64,000 nt of DNA from a virus (taxonomy: Duplodnaviria; Caudoviricetes): the IMG/VR virus record IMGVR_UViG_3300017814_000051, positions 1-64,000 of that record, one strand, 5' to 3'. Of this stretch, positions 1 through 8,290 are shown in pieces (position 1 is the first letter of the stretch; each line of letters begins with the position of its first letter). The position numbers were made by a program, and so were the translations under genes. The notes under the pieces are model-generated. The model saw only the letters and a program-made list of their open reading frames with translations. It was not told the DNA's origin and searched no databases.

Positions 1-305
1 AGGACAACCGGATCAGCGCAGGTCTTCTTTGCGGCCTCGACCTGCTCCAGCACGAATTCGGCATAGCCGCTGGTGCAGTCGTCCATCTCTTCGGAATACC
101 AGGAAAGTCCATCTGTCGGATCGTCTGCCGGGAGCCCCAGCACTTTCTTAAGCTTGAACTCCGCGAGTGCATGAGCATCAGTGCCTTCCGCTGCGTAGTC
201 GCTTCCTTTATCCTCGTAGGTTTCGCAGAGCCGTGCCGATGGCGGACAGTGAATCCATCTGTCAGCGCCGGATGCGGAAAGGATCGCGTGCTGCTTACTT
301 GCCAT
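1..305 (-). CDS. DUF2800-family phage PD-(D/E)XK nuclease, N-terminal part (runs off window)
   Basis: Manual translation from ATG at 305: MASKQHAILSASGADRWIHCPPSARLCE..., homologous to 38303-39433 (MAKHAFLSASASHRWLNCPPSAKLCE). Confidence 0.9.
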   Translation of the reverse strand, partial: MASKQHAILSASGADRWIHCPPSARLCETYEDKGSDYAAEGTDAHALAEFKLKKVLGLPADDPTDGLSWYSEEMDDCTSGYAEFVLEQVEAAKKTCADPVV

Positions 306-633
306 TTCCGATTGCCTCCGAGTCCTTCATAAGGGCTTCATAGTTTGCCGGGTCGATAGCGGAGAGCTTTGTCGCTCCGTATTTCTGGAGCAGGTCACGC
401 ACCTCAGCAGTGTGTCCGGCGCGGGATTTCCCGGCGAGAACGGATCTTACGTCCTCCAGCTTTAATTCCGGCTTGGGTTCTTCTTTTGTAGCAGCAGATT
501 TAGAAGTTTGCTGCTTATCAGAATTGTCTGTACTGGAGAACTGCTGGTAAAGCCAGTCGGCTGCGTCGTTAATAGCGGCAGCAGTACTGCGGAGCTCTTC
601 GATTGTCTGTTTCATGTCTGCTATTTTGCTCAT
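295..633 (-). CDS. Conserved phage protein (often annotated 'rRNA biogenesis protein Rrp5'-like)
   Basis: LEDVRSVLAGKSRAGHTAEVRDLLQKYGATKLS motif; paralogue of 39426-39809; start moved to MSKIADMK behind an AG-rich RBS. Confidence 0.8.
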   Translation of the reverse strand: MSKIADMKQTIEELRSTAAAINDAADWLYQQFSSTDNSDKQQTSKSAATKEEPKPELKLEDVRSVLAGKSRAGHTAEVRDLLQKYGATKLSAIDPANYEALMKDSEAIGNGK

Positions 634-781
634 AGGTTCTTTCTCCTTTCTCGGATTGTCTTTGCTCGGCAAGTATTGAAAGATTTCTTGCCAGTCTTGT
701 GGATACATAGCTGATGGAATTGAGAAGTTTGATTTCTTCGTTGATGTTTCCACCAGCGTCTGCATATGTTCGGTACATCAT
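569..781 (-). CDS. Small conserved phage hypothetical protein
   Basis: GAGGTGA RBS; EEIKLLNSISYVSTRLARNL matches EELIDTLIAISVVAKRLADNL of 39802-39954. Confidence 0.7.
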   Translation of the reverse strand: MMYRTYADAGGNINEEIKLLNSISYVSTRLARNLSILAEQRQSEKGERTYEQNSRHETDNRRAPQYCCRY

Positions 782-925: not shown

Positions 926-1447
926 TTACTTTCCATCTCTGATTCTTCTTAAATCAGTACGGTACTTCTTCATTTGATCTGCGAAGGTTTTCTGTGGGCG
1001 ACCGAGCTCTCTTGCAATAGCACGGTCAGAGATACCTTCCGGATGATCCATCCAGAGCTGAATAATGGTATCCGCTTCCGGATCAAGTTCGCGAAGGCGG
1101 GCAAAAAGCTGCTCCAATAATATGCGGTCTGAGATGAGTTCCTCTATAGGCGTGTTGTTGTCCGGCAGATAGTCGTACATATTGCCGTTGCCGTCCGGAT
1201 TTGTAACGTCAAGAGAAAGGGTGTCCCCTGCTGCATGGTATTCGCAGCCGATGCAGTCACCATCGCATTTCCATGCATAACGGTAAGGACACATGCACCT
1301 GCCGTGATCCTGTTCCTTGTGACGGATGCGGTCGGCTTCCTTATAGAAAGCGTCGTGCTGTTCTTTTGAGACGGGCACCTTTTCGTCGGTGCTGCGGATG
1401 AAGATGAAATAGGTCTTCTGTTTACTATCGTTTTCATTGCTTTTCAT
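926..1447 (-). CDS. Sigma-70-like (region 4 HTH) phage transcription factor
   Basis: C-terminal ISDRAIARELGRPQKTFADQMKK HTH; SLD motif; Cys cluster CMCP...CDGDCIGCEY; heads the early operon. Confidence 0.75.
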   Translation of the reverse strand: MKSNENDSKQKTYFIFIRSTDEKVPVSKEQHDAFYKEADRIRHKEQDHGRCMCPYRYAWKCDGDCIGCEYHAAGDTLSLDVTNPDGNGNMYDYLPDNNTPIEELISDRILLEQLFARLRELDPEADTIIQLWMDHPEGISDRAIARELGRPQKTFADQMKKYRTDLRRIRDGK

Positions 1448-1449
1448 GT

Positions 1450-1660
1450 TGAAACCTCCCAGTTTCGAGTTGCTTCCCGAACCGGAGGTTTCACTGAAAA
1501 GAGCGCAGTTGACCTGTCGGAACGGGAAATTAATCCGTTTCGATGGCCAACCACGCTCGTAGGTTGGTTTATTCAGTTGTGACCGTTACTTCTGTTCGAG
1601 CCACTCTGCATGCCGGGTGAACATCCATAACGGTGAGCCTTTTAACGCCATGCTCAGGGC
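1450..1660 (-). promoter_or_regulatory. Structured 5' leader of the sigma-like gene (pseudoknot-like motif, terminator-like hairpin, RBS-sequestering hairpin)
   Basis: Perfect TGAAACCTCC/GGAGGTTTCA stem (1450-1493) covers the RBS; long hairpin 1501-1558 followed by U4; GCCCTGAGCATGGCGTTAAAAGGCTC at 1635-1660. Confidence 0.6.
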
Positions 1661-1714
1661 ATCAATTAAATATTTGCGTTCATAAAACATTTGTATCCGA
1701 ACGCTGATAATTTA

Positions 1715-1743
1715 TTGTAAATCGCTTAAAACAGTGATATAAT
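1715..1743 (+). promoter_or_regulatory. SigA promoter of ABC-3C operon 1
   Basis: TTGTAA, 17-bp spacer, TATAAT with extended -10 TG. Confidence 0.7.
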
Positions 1744-1860
1744 TAAAAAGAGTTTTTGTAAGCAGATTTACTGATTCATATTATAGGAAATATGACTGGT
1801 GCAGGTTTTACCGCTGATGACCGTGGTTTGACCTGAAAGGTCAAAGGAGGTTATGCGATC

Positions 1861-2862
1861 GTGTATTTCCATGAGATTGCCGGTGAACTTAAGACATATA
1901 TGAGCCCAACAGAGCGCGGCGGTGAATTTATCATCTGGCTTGTCGGGGAAACTTTGCGCGATCCAATGACTGAGGAAGAAGAGAAACTTGCAGAGAATGA
2001 CGAATACAATCCGATGGCTCCTCATATGTCGTTGAACATGGCCGATCAGATACTTGAGGGCAAATCCAAGTTCATTTCCAAAGCAAGAGCTGGTCTTATT
2101 TGCAGCAGATATGATGGACAGGTTTTTGCAGACGAAATTGATAACCTGTACGACGCCAATAAAGATCACCTGCAAAATTTCCTTGCTGTACGAGGACTGG
2201 ATGTAGAGCGAGATGAACTTGGATCGGCGGTGCAGGATATTCTTGACCAGATATTTCACGGCCTTGCAAAAGGCATTCATGATGTAGATATAGAGCTGAC
2301 AATTCACGATCCGAAGCCAAGCATCAAGAACCTTGCTGCGGATCGCATCTATTGCGAAAATGGGAAACTTTTTATAGACGGAGATGTTATTGAACTGCCA
2401 GTAAAACTGAGCGACGCCCAGATTTATGATTTTGAAGCCGGGTATATATCCGCTCTCTGCGACGCATACGCAGAAGTGCTTTCCAGAGACAATGTAACAG
2501 TCGATGACATTCCGAAGCTCCCTAAGAAATATCAGAAGAACTTTTATGAACAGCGCAAGGCTTATCTCAGCGCCGAAAGCATCCAGCGGTCAATCAGCGA
2601 AGTATATGAGGATGGAAAGAACCAGTTCGATATTCTGAAGGACGATGCGTATAACGGAGTCAAGATCACCTATTATGATGACTTCGATAACGGATACAGA
2701 AGGCTCCTTGAGGTACTGAAAAAGATATCCGATGTTCAGCTAACAAAGTCGAAGTTGTCCCTGATCAAAAACTTGATCGGAAATTTAGAAAGGCTTGGAA
2801 TTGTCCATATCCTGGTCAACGACAAGACGATTACATCGTGGGTAGATCCTTATGAGGAGTGA
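1861..2862 (+). CDS. ABC-three-component (Lamassu LmuA-like) protein: ABC-3C C-terminal domain plus uncharacterised N-terminal domain
   Basis: C-terminal F.EQRKAYLSAES...F..LK...Y.G...GY.RL..V...G.VH.LVND..I.SWV pattern typical of the ABC-3C CTD; first gene of the trio; AAGGAGG RBS. Confidence 0.75.
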   Translation: MYFHEIAGELKTYMSPTERGGEFIIWLVGETLRDPMTEEEEKLAENDEYNPMAPHMSLNMADQILEGKSKFISKARAGLICSRYDGQVFADEIDNLYDANKDHLQNFLAVRGLDVERDELGSAVQDILDQIFHGLAKGIHDVDIELTIHDPKPSIKNLAADRIYCENGKLFIDGDVIELPVKLSDAQIYDFEAGYISALCDAYAEVLSRDNVTVDDIPKLPKKYQKNFYEQRKAYLSAESIQRSISEVYEDGKNQFDILKDDAYNGVKITYYDDFDNGYRRLLEVLKKISDVQLTKSKLSLIKNLIGNLERLGIVHILVNDKTITSWVDPYEE

Positions 2863-3313
2863 GATTTTCAATACGACCTTTGAAAATATGCTGAGAGTAT
2901 TGGTGCTGCTGAATACTCTTAGCGTTCCGATGAATAAGGACAGAATTGCGGCACTTGATTTCATCTGTATTTATGGGAAGAACTGCAAGGTTCTGGACAA
3001 GAACCTTCACGGAGATAATGAATTTGGATTTGCTGAATTCGCAGGAAAGCGTGAAAAAATAACCGAAGCTATAAAGCTTTCGGTCAAAAATAACTTTGTA
3101 AATGTGATTCAGGACAGAAACGGATTCCTGTACAGCATTAATGATCGCGGGAAAGTGGTTGTGAATGATGTTCAGTCACCGTATTCAAAAGCTTATACGG
3201 TCGGAGCAAAGATCGTGAACAGACGGTTTTCTACGTGTACAGATCAGGATATTCTGAAGTTCATAAGTGATAAAGCTTCAAAATCAAGGAGGGCTGGGGA
3301 TGCAGAAATTTAG
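2852..3313 (+). CDS. ABC-3C middle component (MC2-like; LmuC-like)
   Basis: FNTTFENMLRVLVLL...LDFICIYG...NLHGDN motif; overlaps both neighbours. Confidence 0.8.
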   Translation: MRSEIFNTTFENMLRVLVLLNTLSVPMNKDRIAALDFICIYGKNCKVLDKNLHGDNEFGFAEFAGKREKITEAIKLSVKNNFVNVIQDRNGFLYSINDRGKVVVNDVQSPYSKAYTVGAKIVNRRFSTCTDQDILKFISDKASKSRRAGDAEI

Positions 3314-5126
3314 AATTGTAAAACTTCGTGTATCCGGAGCCGGAAAGATTGACGGAGTTGTAGAATTCGACGATGGCCTGAACATTATTCAGGGCAGGTC
3401 AAACACAGGTAAAACGTGGATACTGAAATGCATCTATTATCTGTTTAGCTCTGACAAGAGACCGTTTTCACCGCTTACAGGGTATACGGATATAGAAGGA
3501 GTTTTTGAGACCGAACGATACGGGACAATTACGATTTCCCGAAAGCTGGATGAAACGAGTGCACATGTCACTTCAGATAATCCGGAAGTCGAGGATGGCG
3601 ATTACGAAACGAATTATTCCACAAAGAAGCCTCGCTATCTGAATGACCTATGGATTCACATCATTGGCCTTGATGAGACAATTGAAGTTCCTTCAAGCGC
3701 CAGATATGCGCGTGAAAGAATATCGTGGACGAATATTGCCAACACGTTCTTTGTAGATGAAGACGAGGTAGATAAATCCGAATCCATCGTTATTAAAGAT
3801 CCACAGTACGAGACACCACTAATAGCTTCTCTGTATTACCTTTTGACCGGAGATTATAAAAAGGGCGTTCCAGAGATTTTGAAGCCGGAGGTCGCTACAG
3901 CAAAGAAAAAAGGAATCGTCGACTATATTGAAGAACAGGTTATCTCCCTGAACGGGATGAAGGCCGATTATATAAAACAACTGGAGGCTTTGGAGGGCGT
4001 CGATGTAAAGCAACGAATGCAGGAATTAAACGACTGCATCAAGGAATGCCAGCAGGATACGAATGAACTGCTCGAAGAGAATGCGGCTGTTGTAAAGCAG
4101 ATGACTACCTACCAGAAGGAGGATGCCAATTGTCAGGTACTTCTTGACCGGTATGAATACCTGATCAGTCAGTACAAAGCAGACCTACAGCGAATGGACT
4201 TTATAGCCAAAGGCGAAAAAGCTGTGCAGGCTTTGCCTTCGAATAATGTATGCCCATTTTGCGGTGGTGAGCTTGGCGAGCATGATGACAGTTACATGGA
4301 AGCAATTCAGGCGGAGATTACCCGTATTGCATCTGAGGTTACAGTCATTGCAGCTACGGAAGATGATGTCCGCGAAGAAATGAAAGCAGCAAAAGCAAGG
4401 GTTGATGAGTTACAAGCAAGGCGCGACGAGATAGATGCAGCACTTGAAAAGAAGAGACAGGAGATACAGAGCTACCACGCCAACCTTGATAAAATCGAGG
4501 ATTATACCAGGCTGCAGAGCGGCATCGACTTTGTAAATGACCAGCTTGAAATTCTCGGCATGAAGAAGGTATCGGAGCTCCAGAAAAAGAAAAATCCTCC
4601 TTTGTACCATGCAAAGAAGGAATTTGAAGAATATGTAGGAACCGGATTCAACAGTCTTCTTAATCAGATTCTTAAGGACTGTAATTATCGTTCCGGATAT
4701 GCAAGCTGGGACTTCTCCATTTTTGACATTCTGATGGACGGAGTGCCGAAGTCTGAGGCGCAGGGCAAAGGATACCGGTCTTTTCTGAATTCAGTCGTGG
4801 CATTGATGCTGTATCAGTTTTTCAATAGTGATGACGTCTTCCTTAAGACAGGAATCCTGATGATCGACACTCCGCTTCTGGGTCTGGATGAGAGTGAGGA
4901 TACCCTCGAGGGAGAAACGATAAAGAAAGGACTCTACCAGTACTTCATTGATCATAAGGGAAAGGGACAGGTCATCATCGTAGACAACCTTAATATGATC
5001 CCAGATCTTGATTTTGAGGCACAGGGAGTAAAAGTAACAACATATTATAAAGACGAAAGAGATGGCCATACATACGGCTTTATGCCAAGTTGGAGGAAGA
5101 ATCTTCCTAAGGAGACACGGCAATGA
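3300..5126 (+). CDS. ABC-3C SMC/Rad50-like ABC ATPase (LmuB-like)
   Basis: Walker A GRSNTGKT, coiled coil with CPFCG zinc hook, QGKGYR signature, Walker B MIDTP. Confidence 0.85.
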   Translation: MQKFRIVKLRVSGAGKIDGVVEFDDGLNIIQGRSNTGKTWILKCIYYLFSSDKRPFSPLTGYTDIEGVFETERYGTITISRKLDETSAHVTSDNPEVEDGDYETNYSTKKPRYLNDLWIHIIGLDETIEVPSSARYARERISWTNIANTFFVDEDEVDKSESIVIKDPQYETPLIASLYYLLTGDYKKGVPEILKPEVATAKKKGIVDYIEEQVISLNGMKADYIKQLEALEGVDVKQRMQELNDCIKECQQDTNELLEENAAVVKQMTTYQKEDANCQVLLDRYEYLISQYKADLQRMDFIAKGEKAVQALPSNNVCPFCGGELGEHDDSYMEAIQAEITRIASEVTVIAATEDDVREEMKAAKARVDELQARRDEIDAALEKKRQEIQSYHANLDKIEDYTRLQSGIDFVNDQLEILGMKKVSELQKKKNPPLYHAKKEFEEYVGTGFNSLLNQILKDCNYRSGYASWDFSIFDILMDGVPKSEAQGKGYRSFLNSVVALMLYQFFNSDDVFLKTGILMIDTPLLGLDESEDTLEGETIKKGLYQYFIDHKGKGQVIIVDNLNMIPDLDFEAQGVKVTTYYKDERDGHTYGFMPSWRKNLPKETRQ

Positions 5127-5383
5127 AATTATCATATAAAAAATTATGGGTAAAACTCGTTGAAAGAGATCTCAAGAAAACCGAATTTGCAAGAAAGGCT
5201 GGTATCAGTTCAGCTTCCCTTGCAAAGCTCGGAAAAGGCGCAAATATTACGACAGATGTACTCTTGAAAATCTGTGAGTATTTTGACTGCGATATATCAG
5301 ATATTGTAGAAGTCATAAAAGCAGACGATGATAGCGCGCCGGAGAACCAGAATGAGAAACAGGAGGATAAAGTAAATGGCTGA
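5123..5383 (+). CDS. XRE/Cro-C1 (HTH_26-type) transcriptional regulator
   Basis: SYKKLW...AGISSASLAKLGKGANITTDVLLKIC...DCDISDI; ATGA overlap with the ATPase. Confidence 0.9.
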   Translation: MKLSYKKLWVKLVERDLKKTEFARKAGISSASLAKLGKGANITTDVLLKICEYFDCDISDIVEVIKADDDSAPENQNEKQEDKVNG

Positions 5384-6881
5384 GAAAAATACTGCCAATA
5401 TTGGCTTTGAAAAACAAATCTGGGATGCTGCATGTGTTCTGTGGGGACATATACCGGCATCCGAATACAGAAATGTAATCATCGGATTAATTTTTCTAAG
5501 ATACATTTCTACAGCATTTGATAAAAAATATCAGCAGTTGCTTTCAGAGGGCGATGGTTTTGAGGACGATCCGGATGCCTATCTTGAAGACAACGTGTTC
5601 TTTGTCCCGGTGGAGGCTCGATGGGATAAAATAGCTGCAGCAGCACACAAACCGGAAATTGGTACAACGATTGATAATGCAATGCGTGCCATTGAAGCAG
5701 ACAACAAAAAATTAAAAAATGTCTTACCAAAAAATTATGCCAGCCCTGATTTGGATAAACGCGTTCTTGGAGATGTTGTCGATCTATTTACCAATATGGA
5801 TATGGGGGAAACTGAAGGCAACAGAGATGTCCTTGGAAGAACCTACGAATACTGCATTGCACAATTTGCGGAAAAAGAAGGAAAAGGTGGCGGAGAATTC
5901 TATACGCCGTCAAGTATTGTAAATACGCTGGTCTCGATTTTGAAGCCCTATTCAAACTGTCGCGTATATGATTGTTGCTGCGGCAGCGGTGGGATGTTCG
6001 TTCAAAGCGCAAAGTTTATTCAGGCTCATTCCAGTAATAGAGGAGCCATTTCTATATATGGTCAGGAAGCAAATCCGGACACCTGGAAAATGGCAATTAT
6101 GAATCTAACGATTCGAGGCCTTGACGCGGATCTTGGGCCGTATCATGCAGACACATTTACGAACGATTTACATCCGACATTAAAGGCAGATTTTATTCTT
6201 GCTAATCCTCCGTTTAACTACAGCCCTTGGGGGCAGGATAAACTTATGGAAGATGTTCGATGGAAGTATGGTATTCCTCCTGCAAGTAATGCCAACTTTG
6301 CATGGATTCAACATATGATTCATCATCTTGCGCCAGGTGGGAAAATCGGACTCGTCCTTGCGAATGGAGCACTTTCATCTCAAAGTGGCGGTGAAGGAGA
6401 AATCCGTAAAAAAATCATAGAAGATGATTTGATCGAGGGAATCATCGCTATGCCGACACAGCTTTTCTACAGTGTAACGATTCCTGCTACGCTTTGGTTT
6501 ATTACCAAAGGCAAGAAGCAGAAAGGAAAAACAGTTTTCATCGATGCCAGGAAAATGGGACATATGGTTGACCGAAAACATCGTGATTTTACAGAAGAAG
6601 ATATTCAGAAGCTTGCCGATACTTTTGAGGCATTTCAAAATGGAACACTTGAAGATGAAAAAGGATTCTGCGCAGTTGCGACCTTACAGGATATTGCTAA
6701 GCAGGACTATATTCTGACACCAGGAAGATATGTTGGTATCGAAGAACAAGAAGATGATGGTGAACCATTTGACGAGAAGATGACACGCCTTACGTCTGAG
6801 CTTTCAGATGTGTTTGAAAAATCCCATGAACTCGAGGATGAGATCAGAAAGAAGCTGGGGGCGATTGGGTATGAAATCTAA
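5376..6881 (+). CDS. hsdM: Type I RM methyltransferase subunit
   Basis: GEFYTP, DCCCGSGGMF (motif I), NPPF (motif IV), HsdM N-terminal domain. Confidence 0.95.
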   Translation: MAEKNTANIGFEKQIWDAACVLWGHIPASEYRNVIIGLIFLRYISTAFDKKYQQLLSEGDGFEDDPDAYLEDNVFFVPVEARWDKIAAAAHKPEIGTTIDNAMRAIEADNKKLKNVLPKNYASPDLDKRVLGDVVDLFTNMDMGETEGNRDVLGRTYEYCIAQFAEKEGKGGGEFYTPSSIVNTLVSILKPYSNCRVYDCCCGSGGMFVQSAKFIQAHSSNRGAISIYGQEANPDTWKMAIMNLTIRGLDADLGPYHADTFTNDLHPTLKADFILANPPFNYSPWGQDKLMEDVRWKYGIPPASNANFAWIQHMIHHLAPGGKIGLVLANGALSSQSGGEGEIRKKIIEDDLIEGIIAMPTQLFYSVTIPATLWFITKGKKQKGKTVFIDARKMGHMVDRKHRDFTEEDIQKLADTFEAFQNGTLEDEKGFCAVATLQDIAKQDYILTPGRYVGIEEQEDDGEPFDEKMTRLTSELSDVFEKSHELEDEIRKKLGAIGYEI

Positions 6882-8037
6882 GCTTTCAGATATTTGCCAT
6901 TATGTTAAGGGTAAGGTTGATGTATCAGGTCTTGATAATGTTACCTATATTTCAACTGAGAATATGCTTCCCGATAAGGGTGGAGTGACTGAAGCTGCAA
7001 CCTTGCCAAATACGGCACAGGCGCAGATATATGAGCATAACGATGTCCTTGTATCAAATATCAGACCGTATTTCAAGAAGATCTGGTTTGCTAATCAGGA
7101 CGGAGGATGTTCCAATGATGTACTCGTGTTTCGGGCTAATGAAGGGGTGGAACCTGGTTTCTTGTACTATGTACTTGCCGACGAAAAATTTTTTAATTAT
7201 TCGATGGCAACTTCAAAAGGCACGAAAATGCCTCGAGGAGATAAAAAGACATTGATGGAATATGAAGTTCCTGATTTTGACATAGGTACACAAAGAAAGG
7301 TGGCGAGTCTACTCGGAGAGATTGATGAGAAAATCATAACTAATAATGAGATAAACAAGAATTTAGAGCAGCAACTCGAGTTACTTTATGAAGATCTTTC
7401 CTCTCGTGATTCTTGGCCAATTGTCCCCATTGATAATATTGCTAAAAAAATTGCAATGGGCCCATTTGGCTCAAATATCAAGGTGGCAACTTTTGTTGAA
7501 TCAGGTGTGCCTATCATTAGCGGTAATCATCTACGTGGTTTGTTTCTTGAAGAACCGAGCTTCAACTATATTACAGAAAGACATGCTCAACAATTAAAAA
7601 ATTCCATTGTTTACCCACGCGATATTGTCTTTACTCATGCTGGAAACATTGGTCAGGTAGCAATGATTCCGGAAGGGTGTCGATATTCTTGCTATATCCT
7701 ATCTCAACGACAGTTTTACTTGCGTTGTGATCTATTAAAGGCTGTTCCAGAATATGTGCTATTGTTCTTCCATAGTATTGAGGGGCAGCATGAGCTGCTA
7801 TCGTATGCAAATCAGACTGGAGTTCCTTCAATAGCACAACCGGCTTCCAATTTAAAGAAGATAGAACTACCTTTACCGCCTATTGAAGTTCAAACTGAGT
7901 GGTTATCCACCATCCAGCCGATTATCGACTTATATCAAAATAAGCGTTTAGAATCGTCTGATTTGGCAGCTTTGAGAGATACTTTGCTTCCTCGTCTTAT
8001 GTCTGGTGAGCTGGATGTCTCCAACCTTGAACTCTAA
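6871..8037 (+). CDS. hsdS: Type I RM specificity subunit (two TRDs)
   Basis: Two TRD-conserved-region halves; central INKNLEQQ; terminal LRDTLLPRLMSGELDV; start overlaps hsdM end. Confidence 0.92.
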   Translation: MKSKLSDICHYVKGKVDVSGLDNVTYISTENMLPDKGGVTEAATLPNTAQAQIYEHNDVLVSNIRPYFKKIWFANQDGGCSNDVLVFRANEGVEPGFLYYVLADEKFFNYSMATSKGTKMPRGDKKTLMEYEVPDFDIGTQRKVASLLGEIDEKIITNNEINKNLEQQLELLYEDLSSRDSWPIVPIDNIAKKIAMGPFGSNIKVATFVESGVPIISGNHLRGLFLEEPSFNYITERHAQQLKNSIVYPRDIVFTHAGNIGQVAMIPEGCRYSCYILSQRQFYLRCDLLKAVPEYVLLFFHSIEGQHELLSYANQTGVPSIAQPASNLKKIELPLPPIEVQTEWLSTIQPIIDLYQNKRLESSDLAALRDTLLPRLMSGELDVSNLEL

Positions 8038-8203
8038 GCCGCAACAAGCCTGGCAGGTTCGAGGGCTATCGCCCTCTCACTATCCGGCAGTCGCACGATA
8101 GCATCGTCCGTCAATACAAGTCGCCCCGCTCGTGCAAGCACGACGTGTCGCCTTGATTGCCGTCTGGCCTGCCTGGCTCGTTGCTCACATAAATTCTTGT
8201 TTA
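7352..8203. repeat. 14-bp inverted repeats bounding a putative invertible hsdS TRD2 segment
   Basis: TAAACAAGAATTTA (7352-7365) is the exact reverse complement of TAAATTCTTGTTTA (8190-8203); adjacent tyrosine recombinase. Confidence 0.75.
8041..8184. repeat. GC-rich multi-hairpin palindromic element
   Basis: Ends GCAACAAGCCTGGCAGG / CCTGCCTGGCTCGTTGC pair at 15 of 17 positions; internal stems GAGGGC/GCCCTC, ACGAT/ATCGT, TCGTGC/GCACGA. Confidence 0.7.
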
Positions 8204-8290
8204 ACATGCAACCATAACTCTTGCGAGTGGCAAGAGTTGAAATGAGGGACTGCCACTCCGTAGTCATTCTCTACAATATAAAAAGGAGAA

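Follow-up and report, generated by a model that had tools for sequence, protein, structure and literature searches.

The locus at positions 926-5383 of the IMG/VR virus record IMGVR_UViG_3300017814_000051 raises the question of whether a Lamassu-like DNA sensor, encoded where a temperate phage would be expected to keep its repressor, serves as the genetic switch of the phage or as cargo that defends the lysogen. The window analysed corresponds to the first 64 kb of this 117.5-kb record. A preliminary description of the locus had proposed the switch: a CI/ImmR repressor would be replaced by the sensor, and LmuA, once released, might act as a DNA-binding regulator. The results presented here favour the second possibility, with a probability of about two in three. 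According to this reading, the genes form a short type II Lamassu/ABC-3C anti-phage cassette of the CTD6/MC2 clade which, together with an HTH_26 (helix-turn-helix, HTH) gene, is swappable prophage cargo expressed from a strong housekeeping-type promoter. The cassette is probably not the lysogeny switch of the phage, and its location is better described as the head of the lysogeny-expressed cargo operon of the prophage than as a repressor slot. Three Lamassu identities, the structural match of the LmuA docking domain, the coupling of the genes, a promoter-like site, a conserved position and a swappable content have been directly established.

Lamassu is a defence family present in about 10% of prokaryotic genomes. 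The features of its type II (ABC-3C) members have been found in this locus: an LmuB-type ATPase, a small middle component encoded between lmuA and lmuB, and a C-terminal docking domain in LmuA. The trio and the XRE-type HTH gene of the preliminary description were confirmed by Pfam and PADLOC, all five genes of the locus being where they had been placed (Table 1). LmuA matches Pfam CTD6 (E 2e-32), and its residues 1-332 align with positions 1-327 of the 327 of PADLOC model PDLC03857 (E 7e-92). LmuB matches PDLC03867 (E 5.5e-175), with an alignment that begins at residue 12 of an open reading frame (ORF) open from GTG 3267, as well as Pfam AAA_23 and the NCBIfam Rad50 coiled-coil family. As the middle component also matches its own model, PDLC03875, all three proteins are covered end to end, and the Lamassu subtype is therefore one that had already been catalogued by PADLOC/DefenseFinder. 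The catalogue gives no function for the N-terminal domain of LmuA (the head, hereafter), and neither the HTH_26 gene nor the phage context is included in it. Two gene starts had to be revised. The lmuA start at GTG 1861, behind AAAGGAGG, is supported by homologues; the peptide MSLNMADQ..., quoted in the preliminary description, is internal and starts at residue 56. LmuB, with the Walker A motif GRSNTGKT and a CPFC motif at the apex of the coiled coil (both retained in a second copy of the system, see below), is the zinc-hook ATPase that had been described, and most likely starts at ATG 3300, behind AAGGAGG, instead of GTG 3267.

Table 1. Coordinates of the features described in the text (positions of the window).
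Feature	Position	Strand	Description
Second gene of the leftward early operon	295..765	-	156 aa; phrog_408, a phrog without assigned function; homologues with 52-82% identity
'Sigma-like' regulator	926..1447	-	173 aa; Cys4 zinc-type motif and C-terminal sigma region-4-like HTH
Imperfect inverted repeat, candidate operator	1663..1717		Overlaps the -35 of the lmuA promoter
lmuA-operon promoter, housekeeping-type	1715..1743	+	TTGTAA, 17 nt, TG-n-TATAAT; predicted
7-bp inverted repeat TTTGACC-N5-GGTCAAA	1827..1850	+	Abuts the GGAGG ribosome-binding site of lmuA
lmuA	1861..2862	+	333 aa; N-domain of 8 helices (1-150), small beta-meander (~160-180), CTD6 docking domain (192-327)
lmuC (middle component MC2)	2852..3313	+	153 aa; Pfam MC2 E 8.5e-36; PADLOC LmuC (PDLC03875) E 3e-48
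lmuB	3300..5126	+	Rad50/SMC-like ABC ATPase, coiled coil, CPFC hook
HTH_26 gene (small XRE-type, YozG/VanU-like), fourth cassette gene	5123..5383	+	86 aa; Pfam HTH_26 E 3e-17
Downstream cargo, same operon: type I restriction-modification (R-M) genes hsdM, hsdS, tyrosine recombinase, spare hsdS piece	5376..9827	+	Pfam N6_Mtase, HsdM_N, Methylase_S, Phage_integrase
IS21 ending the cargo operon	9933-12193		Pfam rve, IstB_IS21; istA 9933-11456, istB 11453-12193
Copy 2	13596..18228		Regulator (-, 13596-14237), then lmuA2, lmuC2, lmuB2, HTH_26 (+); Pfam and PADLOC

The four reading frames of the cassette are intact and every junction is an overlap: 11 nt between lmuA and lmuC, 14 nt between lmuC and lmuB (from ATG 3300), 4 nt (ATGA) between lmuB and the HTH_26 gene and 8 nt between the latter and hsdM. 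With such an arrangement the genes are translationally coupled. The only HTH protein of this divergent operon is the 86-aa product of its fourth gene, which overlaps lmuB and has neither a promoter of its own nor a repeat 5' of it. No S24, ImmA or other C-terminal domain has been detected in any gene of the operon, and nothing of the CI/ImmR type was found there. The cargo behind the cassette contains no hsdR among the ORFs scanned (5376-12507), and the restriction arm of this R-M system may have been lost. The insertion sequence IS21 lies directly 3' of the spare hsdS piece and is followed by a truncated lspA (12214-12507) and a CopZ-like gene (12657-13157).

The position of the R-M genes leads to the idea that the head is an adaptor, which would couple the Lamassu sensor to separate effectors such as the restriction or DISARM-like enzymes encoded downstream, with the HTH_26 protein coordinating both layers. 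In many loci R-M-like modules are indeed found behind the cassette, often overlapping it: hsdM in copy 1, DISARM-like genes in copy 2, and HsdR-like, Dcm/Eco29kI or methyltransferase genes elsewhere. The head, in which no catalytic-type residue is conserved, also occurs on its own (194 aa) and in a 961-aa helical protein without CTD. Nevertheless, this is very unlikely, because the downstream cargo is too diverse for a single partner (lactococcin-972/ABC (ATP-binding cassette) transporter, IS elements, optrA/fexA and surface proteins have also been found) and the domain hidden Markov model (HMM) revealed no second copy of the head in neighbouring genes. The same diversity concerns a possible role of the HTH_26 gene as R-M controller: besides overlapping hsdM, it lies in front of R-M-like genes in many loci, but of transporters, IS elements or resistance genes in others.

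The structure of LmuA has been predicted with AlphaFold2 from 28-33 homologues. In the model of the full protein (predicted local distance difference test, pLDDT, 87), the C-terminal part aligns to solved LmuA proteins, namely 9nxx_A (Z 11.2, root mean square deviation (rmsd) 3.4, 133 residues) and 9hqx_A (Z 10.2). The head modelled alone (residues 1-152) is formed by eight helices and reaches a pLDDT of 94 and a predicted template modelling score (pTM) of 0.88, which agrees with the preliminary description of a helical N-terminal half without nuclease, protease, TIR or SIR2 features. This confident model resembles no solved fold: no match to PDB structures was obtained (Foldseek E > 1; the best VIA score, with a membrane transporter, was Z 4.8 at rmsd 6.2, and the others had Z <= 3.4), and the head has no Pfam family. 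Across homologues with identities down to ~20%, its only invariant residues are N50, P51, G67 and A77. The proposal that released LmuA is a DNA-binding regulator is not supported, as the fold searches found no HTH, winged HTH (wHTH) or other DNA-binding fold in the head. On the other hand, the toxic-fold check (AlphaFold2, Foldseek) revealed no known toxic fold either, and the switch idea is left unrefuted by it.

Several apparent relatives of the head were discarded. LsoA emerged as the single match of a profile search against PDB sequences with a whole-sequence E of 1e-4; it is attributed to chance, since the independent E is 0.42 even for the best-matching 36 residues. The resemblances to ACP/PCP and to HhH-glycosylases (Z 2.4-3.4, Foldseek E > 2) do not exceed the noise of helical bundles, and a 'G-x-R-x-IS-KK-x-A' motif, taken by eye for the tail of an XRE HTH or for an HhH, is not supported by any fold search. 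The multi-stretch matches P0168 and P0176 of a representative search are spurious, as both are FG-GAP repeat proteins. The search for longer homologues yielded close LmuA relatives and no new architectures, and nothing usable was obtained for the head from the ESM Atlas.

Although it has no recognisable activity, the head behaves as a module. It has been found with CTD6, CTD11 and CTD10 docking/sensor sets, as a stand-alone 194-aa protein beside an AAA_13 ATPase and an HTH_26 gene in NatCom_9287, at the front of the 961-aa helical protein already mentioned, in copy 3 of the record, and in the streptococcal phages phiStag1 and PhiSdyV1524 (HMM E 1e-8 to 1e-9 in their effectors). In the CTD11 relatives an HNH-like zinc module without the first catalytic His lies between head and CTD; in copy 1 LmuA the equivalent position is occupied by the beta-meander alone. 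This recurrence with three docking/sensor sets and as a single protein looks like the behaviour of effector modules. It could also be explained if temperate phages (Heliusvirales and the streptococcal lambdaSa04-like phages) used the head as a non-enzymatic output plugged into interchangeable ABC-ATPase DNA sensors, acting, once DNA ends are detected, on the regulator, on its promoter region or on HTH_26, an explanation to which only a low probability is given.

A non-enzymatic head would also be compatible with a decayed system, in which the enzymatic effector has been lost and what is left is maintained as a remnant that binds DNA or regulates, or as selfish cargo with no role in defence. 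The degenerate HNH-like module of the CTD11 relatives, whose place is taken here by the beta-meander alone, points in this direction. Decay is however the least probable of the explanations considered: the four reading frames are undamaged, the ATPase motifs and the hook have been retained, three paralogous copies are maintained in one record and LmuA is so well conserved that it cannot easily be taken for a remnant, as the comparison with related loci has revealed.

This comparison covers 15 genome loci and several metagenome loci, with sources such as Clostridia, Peptoniphilaceae, Fusobacterium and Mobiluncus, among others. Of all the proteins of the region, LmuA is conserved best (75-99% identity; more than 300 clusters, several phyla). 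Near-identical LmuA proteins are found in records of Bacillota, Fusobacteriota and Actinomycetota, which suggests recent exchange of the cassette. Wherever the flanking sequence suffices, the HTH_26 gene is located 3' of lmuB and a regulator homologue lies divergent upstream, with two exceptions: locus L018, which has a deletion, and an Adlercreutzia island whose LmuA is 43% identical and which has no detectable regulator or HTH_26 gene. In two islands adjacent to guaA/AraC the cassette has been kept and the regulator is reduced to a 133-aa remnant. The cargo behind the HTH_26 gene is variable and includes type I R-M, HsdR-like, Dcm/Eco29kI, DISARM-like, methyltransferase and lactococcin-972/ABC transporter genes, IS elements, optrA/fexA and surface proteins. 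Besides, when loci L001-L021 are set against the window, identities are higher in the cassette (LmuA 82-86%, LmuB ~72%) than in the backbone (PolA and DUF2800 ~60%), as expected of exchanged cargo.

The slot itself can have other contents. In relatives that have kept the regulator and the early operon, it is filled by an HTH_17 gene and R-M genes (NatCom_11393), two genes without assigned function with an HTH_17 gene and an AAA_13 ATPase (NatCom_35866), or an AAA+/subtilase pair with HTH_26 and a DISARM-like set (NatCom_11578), all in the place of Lamassu. It follows that the switch of this phage lineage cannot depend on Lamassu. In Heliusvirales phages such as those of loci L024 (PV036420.1, 17095-20832) and L032 (PV036449.1, 16114-20239), the slot encodes two small proteins without assigned function, an AAA_13 ABC-ATPase and a small HTH protein; the first protein of one of these sets is the head domain of LmuA alone. 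From their composition, these AAA_13 sets look like undescribed three-component relatives.

The idea of the preliminary description can be weighed at this point in its most general form, in which the sensor is wired into lysis-lysogeny or cargo control and the released LmuA head acts, without killing, on the DNA of the divergent promoter or on the zinc/sigma-4-like regulator. If true, a defence-type sensor would decide between prophage silence, induction or cargo expression instead of cell death. In agreement with this, the divergent linkage of lmuA and regulator is kept whichever of two regulator types and three ATPase clades is present, and despite genome rearrangements; the head lacks catalytic-type conserved residues and any toxic fold, and recurs in the phage lineage with different sensors; the CTD11 versions, with an HNH-like zinc module devoid of its first catalytic His, suggest binding over cutting; and the slot has revealed no repressor of the CI type with a domain for cleavage or oligomerisation. 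Nevertheless, it is considered unlikely. The head has no detected DNA-binding fold, the region 1440-1870 contains no direct-repeat array, and the type of head is independent of the type of regulator: phiStag1 combines a regulator of the copy 2 type with a head of the copy 1 type, and copy 2 has the same regulator type with an unrelated head. The relatives that have the same regulator and early operon without Lamassu, together with the Adlercreutzia locus, where this LmuA type exists without detectable regulator or HTH_26 gene, argue in the same sense, and the linkage may stem from the common descent of one family of mobile elements. With the defence and resistance genes behind the cassette and a cassette more conserved than the backbone, the module is probably not a genetic switch in a CI/ImmR slot.

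The anti-phage reading is strengthened by the remaining copies of the system. The record contains three diverged Lamassu+HTH sets (1861-5383, 14660-18228 and, on the minus strand, 109795-113351), each of them divergent from a regulator gene. Copy 2 heads a DISARM-like operon and has 27% (LmuB), 35% (CTD) and 59% (HTH) identity with copy 1; among the three copies the identities are 26-29% for LmuB, 30-37% for LmuC, 33-35% for the CTD and 48-59% for the HTH protein. The heads of copies 1 and 2 have no alignable similarity, the profile-profile comparison having aligned their CTDs only, and the head of copy 2 has a weak PADLOC match to HamA/DUF1837 (E 0.009). The presence of an unrelated head in the same slot looks like the effector swapping that is typical of defence systems. 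Copy 3, outside the window (109795-114378, minus strand), consists of LmuA (112320-113351) with a copy 1-type head, LmuC, LmuB and HTH genes, and is divergent from a gene for a 174-aa regulator (113854-114378), at the head of a series of p156-like, DUF2800 and SSB genes; together with the two sets inside the window it makes three paralogous cassettes in one record.

Some observations weigh against the reading of the cassette as anti-phage cargo. The first group concerns the regulator, whose divergent linkage holds in nearly every related locus examined, even where LmuB is only 26-29% identical, a result that leaves the switch idea of the preliminary description unrefuted by the linkage check as well. 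This linkage outlasts rearrangements of the phage genome (element 2 of the record, phiStag1) and exchange of the whole ATPase/CTD set, and on these comparisons it is tighter than expected for random cargo. The second concerns HTH_26, which differs less from copy to copy (48-59% identity) than any Lamassu protein does (26-37%) and may therefore serve the phage or the cargo instead of Lamassu. The third concerns the head. None of the residues invariant across its homologues is acidic, basic, His, Cys or Ser, and its activity cannot be assigned in the absence of both a solved fold and catalytic-type conservation; a toxic output is for this reason an assumption. Finally, no measurement of a defence phenotype for this Lamassu subtype has been found in the literature. 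Neither the regulator linkage nor the apparently non-enzymatic head is accounted for by the favoured reading.

The gene divergent from lmuA had been described as sigma-like and as the head of the early operon. That it is a phage early regulator gene divergent from the cassette has been confirmed; the sigma-like label rests on a sub-threshold match of residues 55-168, the region-4 end only, to TIGR02937 (sigma-70/ECF; E 0.002, 17.8 bits, cutoff 42.9). The protein belongs to phrog_13787, a family without assigned function, and has neither a Pfam family nor a Sigma70_r2 or r4 match at E 0.01. An alignment of ten relatives revealed that C51, C61, C65 and C68 are invariant and are followed by a conserved sigma region-4-like HTH. 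One relative has sub-threshold Sigma70_r4 matches and another has PHROG 'sigma factor' matches at ~1e-5, and region 2 is not detectable in the family, whose members have 166-222 aa. With a Cys4 motif, a region-4-like HTH and no region 2, the regulator is therefore not a complete sigma factor. Two regulator types exist, phrog_13787 and phrog_2513, the latter being the 'sigma-70 family' gene of phage phiStag1, and genes of either type are always located divergently from an ABC-ATPase cassette. A predicted complex between the head and the 926-1447 protein scored 0.00 (mark 0.32) in a run without controls, which speaks neither for nor against an interaction.

As far as the early operon is concerned, in at least nine related loci the regulator homologue is followed by p156-like, DUF2800/PD-(D/E)xK, Enc34-type SSB, PolA, D5 primase and SNF2 genes. 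Homologues of the 156-aa gene sit after the regulator and before DUF2800/SSB/PolA in loci L001-L021. The place of the regulator gene at the head of the operon is known by synteny only, because the window begins inside the operon, which is just partly visible.

The intergenic region contains the predicted promoter of the lmuA operon, with 10 of 12 consensus matches and an extended -10; its -35 and the TGnTATAAT are conserved across related loci. No housekeeping-type promoter site directed into 926-1447 was found by the promoter scan. The imperfect repeat that overlaps the -35 contains, at 1673-1686, a palindrome of the type TTTGCG..(C)GCAAA. When the upstream sequences of 10 related loci are aligned, this block proves to be conserved, and copy 2 is preceded by a similar TTTGCGGATACAAA at ~14477-14490. 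The palindrome is a candidate operator for the HTH_26 proteins of copies 1 and 2, whose recognition helices are near-identical. The second repeat, next to the ribosome-binding site, has conserved arms and a variable loop in 9 related loci and may act either as a hairpin in the RNA or as a site for a protein. The three intergenic regions of the record have no k-mer of at least 8 nucleotides in common.

From these data and from published work on Lamassu, the following mechanism can be proposed. It has been reported that LmuA is released when DNA ends are sensed and that it then oligomerises through its CTD (PMC12663957; bioRxiv 10.1101/2025.03.14.643221), and that Lamassu is found in prophage hotspots and requires every component (bioRxiv 10.1101/2022.05.11.491447). 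The cassette would be the first unit of an accessory operon that diverges from the zinc/sigma-4-like early regulator and continues unbroken into the type I R-M genes. In the lysogen, an LmuB2-LmuC complex would hold LmuA as an inactive monomer until an incoming phage or plasmid, through its DNA ends or replication intermediates, triggers the release; the free protein would oligomerise via its CTD and gather the heads, three steps taken from the published Lamassu structures. The 150-residue helical head would be the output, which is the weakest step of the proposal. Since it has no conserved catalytic-type residues, the multimerised head probably binds or sequesters a cellular or phage target instead of acting by catalysis. 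The HTH_26 protein most likely autoregulates the operon of cassette and cargo, with the 1663-1717 palindrome and the 1827-1845 inverted repeat as candidate sites, and could double as prophage immunity regulator.

Compared with the solved type II systems, Vibrio cholerae DdmABC (= LmuACB; PDB 9NXX/9NY5) and Salmonella enterica LmuACB (9HQX/9HR5), the locus has the same lmuA-lmuC-lmuB order, a Rad50-like LmuB with coiled coil and CxxC hook, a small middle component and an LmuA docking/tetramerisation domain (Z 10-11). It differs from them in three aspects: the head is an 8-helix domain without catalytic-type conserved residues and not a Cap4/PD-(D/E)xK nuclease, there is a fourth, translationally coupled HTH_26 gene, and the position is fixed in one prophage lineage, divergent from an early regulator. 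It is thus a catalogued system in an already known kind of place, a prophage defence hotspot, for which no experimental test of the subtype has been found in the literature. If the head is truly non-enzymatic, an SMC-like DNA-end sensor would signal through binding and not through a nuclease or NADase, and its target, once defined, would represent a new output class for the Lamassu family.

The layout also recalls lambda cI-rexA-rexB and similar immunity-region genes, where the lysogen expresses defence genes and a small HTH gene as one transcript, the promoter of which is divergent from the early lytic operon; in the present locus this is predicted from the sequence. Unlike in lambda, the HTH gene is here the fourth and not the first, its 86-aa product has no oligomerisation or cleavage domain and is a candidate repressor at most, and the defence unit is Lamassu instead of RexAB. 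The closest parallel is found in streptococcal lambdaSa04-like phages (phiStag1, PhiSdyV1524-fexAoptrA), in which a 'sigma-70 family' gene is divergent from genes for an effector, a middle component, an ABC ATPase and a yozG-like XRE protein, followed by variable cargo. Their effectors share the N-terminal helical domain with copy 1 LmuA and have the HNH-like zinc module between head and CTD; CTD11, a MafI-like middle component and a DUF2326 ATPase take in these phages the place that CTD6, MC2 and LmuB have here. In the streptococcal phages L026 and L027 (OQ418408.1, PP091924.1) the regulator, ABC-3C and yozG-like HTH genes stand directly before optrA/fexA or surface-protein cargo. As this four-gene layout heads the cargo of streptococcal optrA/fexA/surface-protein phages, the promoter and HTH_26 may control the expression of clinically relevant prophage cargo.

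Regarding the carrier of the cassette, the flanking DUF2800, Enc34 SSB, PolA, D5 primase, SNF2, terminase, tail and serine-recombinase genes, together with Heliusvirales records of identical layout, identify it by sequence as a temperate Ca. Heliusvirales-type phage (prophage) of gut Firmicutes. The NatCom phages with matching regulator and layout have been classified as Ca. Heliusvirales (de Jonge et al., PMC11283538), and the published papers on Heliusvirales and on Phi1207.3 make no mention of the Lamassu+HTH module. The record includes a second element with terminase and tail genes and, at its end, three large serine recombinases, arranged in tandem (534, 522 and 351 aa). These recombinases, which lie outside the window and together with the genes behind them occupy record positions 64724-82822, are followed by a further defence cluster composed of GmrSD, an HTH-Dcm methylase, a Z1-domain protein, an NgoFVII-like endonuclease and a NACHT/SNaCT14 protein.

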